From a virus (Duplodnaviria; Heunggongvirae; Uroviricota; Caudoviricetes), in the IMG/VR virus record IMGVR_UViG_2703718816_000003: a stretch of DNA of 6,405 nucleotides. The stretch is one strand, 5' to 3'. The position numbers are program-made. Shown piece after piece: positions 1 through 3,000 of this stretch. Numbering within the stretch: the first letter of the stretch is position 1; every line of letters starts with the position of its first letter.

Positions 1-3000
1 ACAAACGTTTGAAGAAAAACTGGCTTCCCTGTCTGTGGTATTACAGAAGTGCGTGACGGGCGATGATGTGCGTCCGATGCTTGAACAGATGGTGAAGGAG
101 GCGGTAAGCCATATCCCTGTTCCGCGTGACGGTCGTGACTACGATCCGGAAGTACTGCAGAAGGCGGTGAATGATGCGGTCGCAAATATTCCTGTACCGG
201 CGAACGGTAAAAGTATCACTCCCGATGATGTGCGTCCGATGCTTGCGCAGATGGTGAAGGAGGCGGTAAGCCATATTCCTGTTCCGCGTGATGGTCGTGA
301 CTATGATCCGGAAGTACTGCAGAAGGCGGTGAATGATGCGGTCGCAAATATTCCGCAGCCGGCAGACGGTAAAAGTATCACCCCGGATGATGTGCGTCCG
401 ATGCTTGAGCAGATGGTGAAGGAGGCGGTAAGCCATATTCCTGTTCCGCGTGATGGTCGTGACTATGATCCGGATGTTCTGCAGAAGGCGGTGAATGATG
501 CGGTGAGTGCCCTGCCGGCTCCGCAGGACGGGCGTGATGCCACTGCACTGGAAATACTCCCCGCCATTGACGATCAAAAATCCTTTCCCCGGGGCACGTA
601 TGCCACACACCAGGGCGGACTCTGGCGGGCGTATGAAAAAACGCACGGGATGCGGGGATGGGAATGCCTGGTTGACGGGGTGGCGGATATTGACGTCAGC
701 ATGACGGGTGAACGGTTGTTCTCTGTGGTGGTCCGGCAGAGCAGTGGCCAGCGTACGGAAAAAACATTTTCCCTGCCGGTGATGCTCTACCGCGGTGTGT
801 TCAGGGCCGGTGAAACCTACCACCCCGGCGATACGGTGACGTGGGGGGGCTCGCTGTGGCACTGCAACAGTATGACCGGTGATAAACCCGGAGAAGCTCA
901 TTCATCAGGCTGGACCCTGGCTGCAAAACGTGGGCGGGATGCAGGAGGCGGAAAATGACGGCATTACTGACGCTGGAAGAGATCAAGGCGCATCTGCGTG
1001 TCGACCATGACGCGGATGATGACATGCTGATGGACAAGGTTCGTCAGGCTACCGCCGTGCTGCTGGCCTACATTCAGGGCAGCCGGGATAAGGTGATTCG
1101 TGAGGACGGTGAACTGATCCCGGGCGAGGCATTAACCCGGATGAAGGGGGCTGCCATGCGACTGACCGGGATGCTGTACCGGAATCCGGATCTTGCGGAG
1201 CGGGAAGAACTGCTTCAGGGGGAGCTGCCGTTTTCTGTTTCCGTGCTGATTTACGATTTGCGTTGTCCGACGGTGTTATGAGGAGGGGGAATGGCAATAT
1301 CTGCAGGTCGTCTGACACAGATGATAAGTGTTCTGAACCCGGTGTTAACCCGTAATGCTGCCGGAGAAATGACGGAAGAATGGGTGTCATGCGGGAAAAT
1401 TCATGCGGATATCCGTGGCAGGAGCAGCCGGGAGCGGATGCAGTCCGGTGCGGAAATGGCGCAGGCGGAAATCCGCATCTGGGTGCGCGGTCAGTCCGGT
1501 CGGGAAATCACGGCAGCGTCACGACTTCATGTGCTGAGTGGTCCCTGGCGTGACCGGATCCTGAACGTTGTCGGGCTGCCCGTGTCGGATGCGACCGGCG
1601 GGCGTCTGGAAATTCTCTGTCGGCTGGGAGGGGAAAAATGATCGAAACCCTGCTGGATTTTTCGGGGCTGGAGGACATCAGCCGCGATTTGCAGCTTCTG
1701 AGTGGTACGGAAAACAACCGGGTGCTGCGTGAGGCAACCCGTGCGGGTGCGAATGTGCTGAAAGAAGAAGTGGTGTTACGGGCACCGGTGCGCAGGGGAA
1801 AACTGCGCCGCAATGTGGTGGTCCTTTCCCGGCGCTCCCGCGATGGCGGGATGGAATCCGGTGTCCATATCCGTGGTGTTAATCCGGACACCGGTAACAG
1901 CGATAACACCATGAAGGCGGATAACCCGCGCAATGCTTTCTACTGGAGGTTTGTGGAAATGGGGACCGTGAATATGCCACCGCACCCGTTTGTGCGCCCG
2001 GCGTTTGATGTGCGCAGTGAACAGGCAGCGCAGGTGGCGATTGCTCGGATGAACCGGGCCATTGATGAGGTACTGAGACGATGACGGAGGCGGATTTGTA
2101 TCCTCATCTGGCGCATCTTGCCGGCGGGCAGGTGTACCCGTATGTGGTCCCCCTGCTGGATGGCAGGCCGTCGGTGGCGCTTCCGTGGGTGGTTTTCAGC
2201 CTGATTTCATCGGTGTCTGCGGACGTGATGGGCGGGCAGGCGGAGTCCTCAGTGTCGGTGCAGATAGACGTTTATGCCGGGACTGTGACGCAGGCGCGTC
2301 AGATACGTCAGGACGCCCGTGAAGCCATAATGCTGCTGGCCCCGGGATCCGTCAGTGAAATGCAGGACTATATTCCGGAAAACCGCTGTTACCGTGCAAC
2401 CCTGGAGTTTCAGGTCACGGTGTGACTTTTTCTTTTTTCTACAAAACCCATACCCCGCCGCGTGCGGGTTTTTTATTATCAGGAGGCAGAATGTCTGCTT
2501 TGTATGAACGCTCACAGCTGACGCAGGTGATGATTTCATCTGCCCCGGCGACTGCTGAAACTATGGATAAGGCGGAATATCTGCGCCTGGACTGCACCAT
2601 CAAGGAAGTCCAGTTCACCGCCGGTCAGAAACAGGATATTGATGTGACCACGCTCTGCTCCACAGAGCAGGAGAACATCAATGGTCTGGGGGCGTCGTCC
2701 GAGATTTCCATGTCGGGTAATTTTTATCTGAATCAGGCCCAGAACGCCCTGCGTGATGCCTATGACAATGACGCGTTGTATGCGTTTAAGGTGCTGTTTC
2801 CGTCCGGTAAGGGCTTTAAATTCCTGGCGGAAGTGCGTCAGCACACCTGGTCATCCGGTACCAACGGCGTGGTGGCTGCAACGTTCTCACTGCGTCTGAA
2901 AGGCAAACCGGTGTCCTTTGTGGTACCGCTGGCGTTTGTGAAAAATCTGGATAAGACACTTACCGTGAATACCGGTGCGTTGCTGACAATGTCAGTCAGT

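Follow-up and report, generated by a model that had tools for sequence, protein, structure and literature searches.

What kind of element is a long tandem repeat written in frame through a phage gene, does it gain and lose units, and what does it build? These questions are raised by the window analysed here, a 6,405-nt stretch of viral DNA (Caudoviricetes; IMG/VR record IMGVR_UViG_2703718816_000003), the first 1,300 bases of which belong to the head–tail module of a lambdoid Shiga toxin (Stx)-type siphophage prophage and carry the 3′ part of a repeat-bearing open reading frame (ORF), ORF2. Here we show that the array in ORF2 is a genuine coding minisatellite, or variable-number tandem repeat (VNTR), the 162-nt units of which encode the modular middle of a 353-amino-acid (aa) protein. 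We consider it likely that the locus as a whole is explained by such a minisatellite in the gene for a fibre-like protein, in which the gain and loss of units alters a stalk that ends in a CBM5/12-like tip (a carbohydrate-binding module of chitin-binding type).

The 162-nt array in ORF2

Over its first 1,300 bases the window is 100% identical to the chromosome of Escherichia coli OkiPb01678 (NZ_AP042495.1), and the corresponding chromosomal stretch (L001; window position equals L001 position minus 9000) contains ORF2 at its full length (L001 8897–9958, 353 aa). Tandem Repeats Finder (TRF) reports a single array in the window (61–504; period 162, 2.7 copies, 94% matches, no indels, score 788), and a second repeat finder delimits three copies (61–222, 223–384 and 385–546) at a spacing of exactly 162 nt. 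Read in the frame that opens at position 2, these become three head-to-tail units of 54 codons each (Table 1). At a lag of 162 the best match is 153 of 162 bases, as against a mean of 59 and a maximum of 68 when the codons of the window were shuffled 500 times. The original prediction of three in-frame copies between 62 and 547, lying inside a structural gene, is thus upheld by both programs, by the reading frame and by the shuffles, the array being in frame within a gene of the virion module. Its further suggestion that the array runs on upstream of the window is not: in the source locus TRF begins the array at L001 9061 (window 61), behind 55 unique residues (MNERELSIIRALGEEF...LQKCVTG).

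The copies are less alike than the handful of differences first proposed. Copies 1 and 2 differ at 13 nt (92.0% identity), with 3 amino-acid changes and with 7 synonymous and 3 non-synonymous differences among the codons concerned; copy 3 differs from copy 1 at 31 nt and from copy 2 at 29 (about 81–82% identity). The differences between copies 2 and 3 are unevenly placed: only 3 fall within the first 119 nt, and the final 43 nt hold the other 26, which marks copy 3 as the diverged edge unit at the 3′ end of the array. The longest identical in-register runs are 50 nt between copies 1 and 2 and 66 nt between copies 2 and 3.

Each 54-aa unit divides into a pair of similarly built 27-aa halves, in which an amphipathic helix leads into the motif [I/L]PxPxxG[K/R][D/S]. 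To this extent the 81-bp sub-periodicity noted earlier is real, but only approximately so: the spacing of the motif alternates between 25 and 29 aa (75 and 87 nt), base identity within 61–546 reaches 0.43 for a lag of 75 and 0.39 for one of 87, and ungapped 81-nt half-units are only about 35% identical. A minus-strand ORF at 41–901 (286 aa) was also considered as the gene and was ruled out, with homology, codon-position pattern and synteny all favouring the plus frame.

Table 1. Coordinates of ORF2, its parts and the adjoining gene in the window
Feature	Position	Strand	Basis or remark
ORF2 (repeat-bearing gene), 3′ 957 nt	2..958	+	Open translation; stop TGA 956–958; PHROG matches phrog_2271 and phrog_1289
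End of unique N-terminal helical segment (QTFEEKLASLSVVLQKCVTG), outside array	2..61	+	TRF array start at 61
Repeat copy 1, 54 codons, DDVRPMLEQMVKEAVSHIPVPRDGRDY + DPEVLQKAVNDAVANIPVPANGKSITP	62..223	+	
Repeat copy 2, 54 codons	224..385	+	
Repeat copy 3, diverged 3′ edge unit	386..547	+	TRF homogeneous array ends at 504
C-terminal all-β domain with CBM5/12-like (chitin-binding-type) module(s), then basic tail KRGRDAGGGK	548..955	+	
Head–tail adaptor Ad1 (gp6-like connector)	955..1281	+	Pfam Phage_connect_1; PHROG 40

Gain and loss of whole units among related prophages

Orthologous loci differ in the number of units that they carry. The 73 scorable IMG/VR prophage loci comprise alleles of 3 units (n = 20), 4 units (n = 43), 5 units (n = 8) and 7 units (n = 2), and all length differences among them divide evenly by 54 aa. 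The range widens when finished sequences are included. Complete E. coli chromosomes carry 1 unit (AP026751.1 and AP026754.1, in each case at 3001–3738 of the extracted stretches L113 and L114, encoding a 245-aa protein), 3 units (this window) or 4 units (CP074872 and CP071263), and complete phage genome records carry 2 units (Stx2c phage LC727884), 3 units (Stx1_499) or 5 units (phage BP-4795, ORF59, 461 aa). The expectations that the array would expand and contract in multiples of 54 codons without breaking the frame, and that related prophages would be polymorphic in length, are both borne out: the alleles have 1, 2, 3, 4, 5 or 7 units, and they differ by whole units only. Two spans in BLAST alignments (H71 and H77) that hinted at length changes not divisible by 162 nt proved to be plain 4-unit alleles.

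Repeats longer than the sequencing reads can be collapsed or expanded during assembly, and the differences in unit number might be artefacts of this kind. Many draft contigs do end inside the array (those of protein clusters P0282, P0275 and P0313, for instance), and the 7-unit alleles are found only in draft-derived IMG/VR contigs. The finished chromosomes and phage genomes listed above nonetheless rule out assembly error as a general explanation, and every allele keeps both the frame and the diverged edge units, leaving this account improbable in the extreme. That the array is a trouble spot for assembly, as was also foreseen, is evident from large clusters of ‘partial’ proteins that start within the final repeat units and lie on contigs of about 0.5–1.5 kb (P0282 with 1,456 members, P0275 with 665 and P0313 with 650; likewise P0276, P0291, P0322 and P0325). 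Breaks in or near the array are thus frequent in short-read assemblies, owing in part to the abundance of related prophages within a genome: in genomes with any match, the 1,300-base query has a median of 5 matching places and a maximum of 31.

Some of the changes in unit number are recent. Four loci (L009, L022, L070 and L079) show 0 differences over 1,600 nt of flanking sequence, yet carry 3, 4, 5 and 7 units, respectively, and of two prophages in a single genome (IMG 2537562191) one has 4 units and the other 3. Within arrays, interior units are 96.1% identical, compared with 91.4% between loci, and they are matched less closely by the first units (86% identity to interior units) and the last units (80%). 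Arrays have unit variants of their own: all interior units of L080, for instance, read IPQP[A/G]DGKSL, and all those of L054 read HIPAPRDGRD and IPVPADGKSI. Of the variable sites in interior units, 28 of 52 fall at codon position 3 of the plus frame. In the 1-copy allele the only unit is a hybrid that combines the diverged first unit with the diverged last unit, which is what an in-register deletion would produce.

Taken together, the homogenised interiors, diverged edges, array-specific variants, hybrid unit and shared identical runs fit a history of unequal in-register exchange with homogenisation, and the higher identity of interior units within arrays fits concerted evolution. Mechanistically, whole units would be gained or lost when units recombine in register by homology or slip during replication, with RecA, phage recombinases and slippage as candidate pathways, and such exchange could take place within one array or among several related prophages of one genome.

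The opposing view is that the domain was duplicated long ago and the array has since been static, purifying selection keeping the repeats similar, with no ongoing expansion, contraction or homogenisation. Copies 1 and 2 of the window lend it something: they differ by 8%, mostly at synonymous positions, and are therefore not new copies. Of the two possibilities raised by the original prediction, recent duplication or concerted evolution, the homogenised interiors of related arrays fit the second, and the divergence of copies 1 and 2 does not suit the first. The static view is, however, contradicted by different unit numbers on identical flanks, by synonymous and loop variants that are array-specific, by interior identity that is greater within arrays than between loci and by a 1-unit allele that joins a first unit to a last, and we regard it as very unlikely.

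Predicted architecture and possible location of the ORF2 protein

An AlphaFold2 model of the single chain, computed with a 79-sequence alignment, places a helix at residues 2–14 of the N-terminal segment and folds the last ~130 residues into an all-β domain at high confidence (predicted local distance difference test (pLDDT) score of 92–98). Fold searches match solved CBM5/12 domains as well as the tail-fibre proteins of Agrobacterium phages 7-7-1 and Milano, and the predicted viral structures that they match are annotated with collagen triple-helix repeats, ChiC_BD or CBM5/12. Relatives of ORF2 at 55–70% identity have the Pfam family PF02839 on record. A second family, PF28083.1, is precomputed on many ORF2 relatives, and the Pfam scan of the window protein gave no match to it.

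A sequence search against solved structures gave weak matches at best, to designed helical repeat proteins (E ≥ 0.047), and no homologue; Pfam and NCBIfam scans assigned the repeat region to no family, giving only sub-threshold chance matches (DUF4244, TetR_C_35 and V-ATPase subunit E); and an Rfam scan of the window found no match. Pfam Collagen (PF01391) has no match in the window protein, the loops of which hold only isolated PxPxxGxD motifs.

Homologues elsewhere in the family suggest how such a protein may be built. In P0374 and P0378, Gly-X-Y tracts with PF01391 matches replace the helix–loop modules, and the gene for P0378 (L112 5001–5765) occupies the same slot between portal and Ad1, flanked by TerL, a protease–capsid fusion, the portal gene and Ad1. 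Members of the family can thus exchange one type of stalk for another. Because collagen tracts always assemble as trimers, their presence in same-slot homologues leads us to infer a trimeric fibre. The unique N-terminal helical segment is probably the anchor and the repeat region probably a spacer or stalk that is oligomeric and, by analogy with these homologues, trimeric. On the same analogy the whole protein would be a fibre in which a variable stalk joins an anchor to a lectin-like tip, with 162-nt units adding or removing stalk modules; copy number would then set the distance between the sugar-binding tip and its anchor on the virion, which may lie outside the capsid at the portal or neck vertex or at some other place on the capsid surface. 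The idea of a variable stalk length in the original prediction is, in this sense, a reasonable one.

The gene lies between those of the portal and the head–tail adaptor. The start codon of ORF2 overlaps the stop codon of the portal gene (AAAATGA), and its own stop overlaps the start of Ad1 (ATGA, 955–958). Outside the E. coli loci, the order portal, ORF2 homologue and Ad1 was found as separate ORFs in 15 loci from other genera, in Enterobacterales (at least 9 genera: Phytobacter, Kosakonia, Kluyvera, Atlantibacter, Enterobacter, Entomohabitans, Citrobacter, Buttiauxella and Pantoea) and beyond them in Pseudomonas and Marinobacter. Profile scans with Pfam and NCBIfam detect no portal domain in the window ORF or in the 353-aa ORF; TIGR01537 and PF04860 match only the upstream ORF, the former at L001 7536–8900 with E = 2e-105.

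In E. coli the two genes are sometimes joined, and the length of a run of G at their junction (L001 8880–8900, compared with junctions L002–L081) decides between the two states. In 50 of 76 E. coli loci the run has five bases (CAGGGGGAT; G5), giving two ORFs with the ATGA overlap; in the other 26 it has six (CAGGGGGGAT; G6), giving a single ORF of 812–1,028 aa, and both lengths are found on otherwise identical junction sequences. Most fused-form matches lack part of the N terminus and typically come from contigs of about 1.7–3 kb. In other enterobacterial genera the portal protein ends in ...RG[L/F/M][L/I][T/A]K and the AAAATGA overlap follows; most other genera have AGAGGA at the position of the E. 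coli G run, and the N terminus MNERE... is kept. The phage records of BP-4795 and Stx1_499 are also split. We therefore take the split state to be ancestral and the fusion to be a derived one-base insertion.

A programmed −1 ribosomal frameshift that joins portal and ORF2, such that the repeat region is normally made as an extension of the portal protein, was considered at this junction. ORF2 does lie in the −1 frame relative to the portal gene, a −1 slip on the GGGGG run in the overlap would yield exactly the product of the fused alleles, and the NCBI Prokaryotic Genome Annotation Pipeline (PGAP) calls the pair ‘frameshifted’. The G run is not conserved, however, with most other genera examined having AGAGGA while the AAAATGA overlap is kept; no X_XXY_YYZ heptamer is present at the junction; and a conserved AGRGGR lying 11–12 nt before the ATG looks like, and may be, a ribosome-binding site. 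With the slippery G5 run specific to E. coli, we rejected this candidate, to which we attach a very low probability.

More weight attaches to the proposal that the protein is internal, a head component tethered to the portal and positionally analogous to SPP1 gp7 and the Mu F-type minor head proteins, with the protein seated on the portal crown and the repeats as a flexible tether inside the capsid. ORF2 follows the portal gene directly, with overlapping stop and start, in every genus examined; in-frame portal fusions, the chief evidence for this proposal, occur in several E. coli backgrounds, in a Pantoea locus (L102) and in P0237; and the portal C terminus faces the capsid interior in solved portals. 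External adhesion fibres, on the other hand, are where CBM5/12-like domains and collagen-like stalks, such as those of the C-terminal domain and of the same-slot homologues, are typically found, and the nearest viral fold matches are collagen- or CBM-bearing proteins of fibre type. The split state, moreover, is ancestral and is what both the induced phage BP-4795 and the Stx1_499 record show, and the fused alleles may be tolerated or defective. On this evidence we judge an internal location unlikely.

Several points weigh against the reading that we prefer, a minisatellite that varies the stalk of an external, lectin-tipped fibre. AlphaFold2 models the repeat region with only moderate confidence (pLDDT 50–70; helices of 13–17 aa, loops of 12 aa). 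The window protein scores 21.5 bits against Pfam CBM_5_12 (PF02839), below the 26.2-bit cut-off, and the C-terminal domain is described as resembling CBM5/12 on the strength of its predicted fold and of its relatives. The copy-number samples are biased, with only the best-scoring loci and proteins included, and the literature search turned up no description of the repeat or of the protein. Finally, in-frame portal fusions in 26 of 76 loci fit an internal location better than they fit an external fibre. A preprint on phage Jabs was also considered in the literature search and has no bearing on the repeat or the protein.

Family, neighbouring genes and known systems

A genome scan for relatives was seeded with a 6-sequence alignment of the C-terminal domain, and a full HMMER scan recovered 5,750 representative clusters at E ≤ 0.001, 647 of them at E ≤ 1e-30. 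The family consists mostly of standalone proteins of 250–700 aa, in which none to about 18 helix–loop modules of 25–29 aa precede the conserved C-terminal domain. Portal fusions have arisen independently in other lineages, in P0237 (1,237 aa) and in the Pantoea protein (L102 188–3932; 1,248 aa), and P0237 carries a long array of a different repeat, with units of about 22 aa (...LPEPEPLPDI...), before the same C-terminal domain. A broader proposal, which we put forward tentatively and hold to be possible rather than probable, is that these proteins form a widespread, uncharacterised family of lectin-tipped fibres (at least 5,750 clusters at 50% identity), misannotated as ‘portal protein’, encoded by genes linked to that of the portal, possibly anchored at the portal or neck vertex and built on interchangeable stalks of helix–loop modules or collagen, the length of which is tuned by the minisatellite in the Stx-type phages of E. 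coli. If this is true, stalk-length tuning would alter adsorption or adherence to glycans or mucus.

The locus has practical consequences. PGAP labels the gene of the window ‘phage portal protein, frameshifted’ and does likewise in two other complete genomes (three loci), a pseudogene label that is an annotation artefact carried over from the fused alleles. Flagging the ancestral two-gene arrangement in this way hides an intact gene in the complete genomes inspected (three loci). The array, for its part, breaks short-read assemblies of E. coli prophages, Stx phages included, and its unit count (1–7) is a ready marker with which to separate near-identical prophages.

The surrounding genes are those of a siphophage virion. 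Small and large terminase, a prohead protease–major capsid fusion, a 73-aa ORF and an HK97-type portal are followed by the repeat-bearing ORF, the adaptor Ad1, the head closure protein Hc1, a gp10-like protein and the tail terminator, and then by a tail tube protein with an immunoglobulin (Ig)-like domain, the G and T tail chaperones and the tape measure protein. The Ig-like domain lies at the C terminus of the major tail tube protein (window 2422–3207; PGAP start 2491; Pfam Ig_3, Ig_2 and I-set) and is a second accessory surface domain of the same virion. A canonical A_AAA_AAG slippery heptamer (3587–3596) directly precedes the stop codon TAG of the ORF for tail assembly chaperone G (3174–3596), the −1 frame of which leads into the T ORF (3620–3901), the usual G/GT programmed frameshift of lambda-like tails. 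The tape measure gene contains a 12-nt tandem repeat of 2.2 copies (GCCGGTGCCTTT; 4162–4188), which has a low score and may be due to chance.

The closest precedents for a variable stalk come from prophage tail-fibre proteins of pathogenic E. coli, with their collagen-like Gly-X-Y stalks, and from the collagen-like SPP1 gp12. As in these, a repetitive stalk separates the anchor from the distal domain and changes in length by whole units with the frame intact, and homologues of the ORF2 protein in the same slot use a collagen-like stalk themselves. The unit of ORF2 is, by contrast, a 54-aa double helix-plus-loop module rather than a Gly-X-Y triplet, and the gene adjoins that of the portal, not the tail-fibre region. 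T4 fibritin (wac) is a segmented coiled-coil neck fibre with a foldon at its end. It shares with the ORF2 protein short helical segments broken by loops, an N-terminal anchor, a distinct C-terminal domain and an association with the head–tail junction, the last of these being a predicted location for the ORF2 protein; no match to fibritin was found, however, in sequence or fold, and a CBM-like tip takes the place of the foldon.

Lactococcal 936 phages are reported to have carbohydrate-binding modules on the neck passage structure and on other parts of the virion (PMC6669499). The likeness lies in accessory CBMs on siphophage virions away from the tail tip, to which the Ig-like accessory domain on the tail tube of the present phage may be added, and the unlikeness lies in other proteins, hosts and gene positions; for the ORF2 protein, carbohydrate binding is a prediction. 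Compared with the CBM5/12 domains (PF02839) of Serratia marcescens chitinase B and Streptomyces griseus ChiC, the ORF2 domain is larger (about 130 aa) and sits on a phage stalk. With the HK97-family portal (PF04860/TIGR01537), ORF2 shares a border, adjoining a true HK97-type portal gene and being fused to it in some alleles, but it lacks the portal domain that its database name implies. A length-variable repetitive stalk in a phage protein of fibre type is thus of a well-known kind and answers no long-standing question; what this locus points to is a common and unstudied virion protein of clinically important phages, the reach of which may be adjustable by simple recombination.

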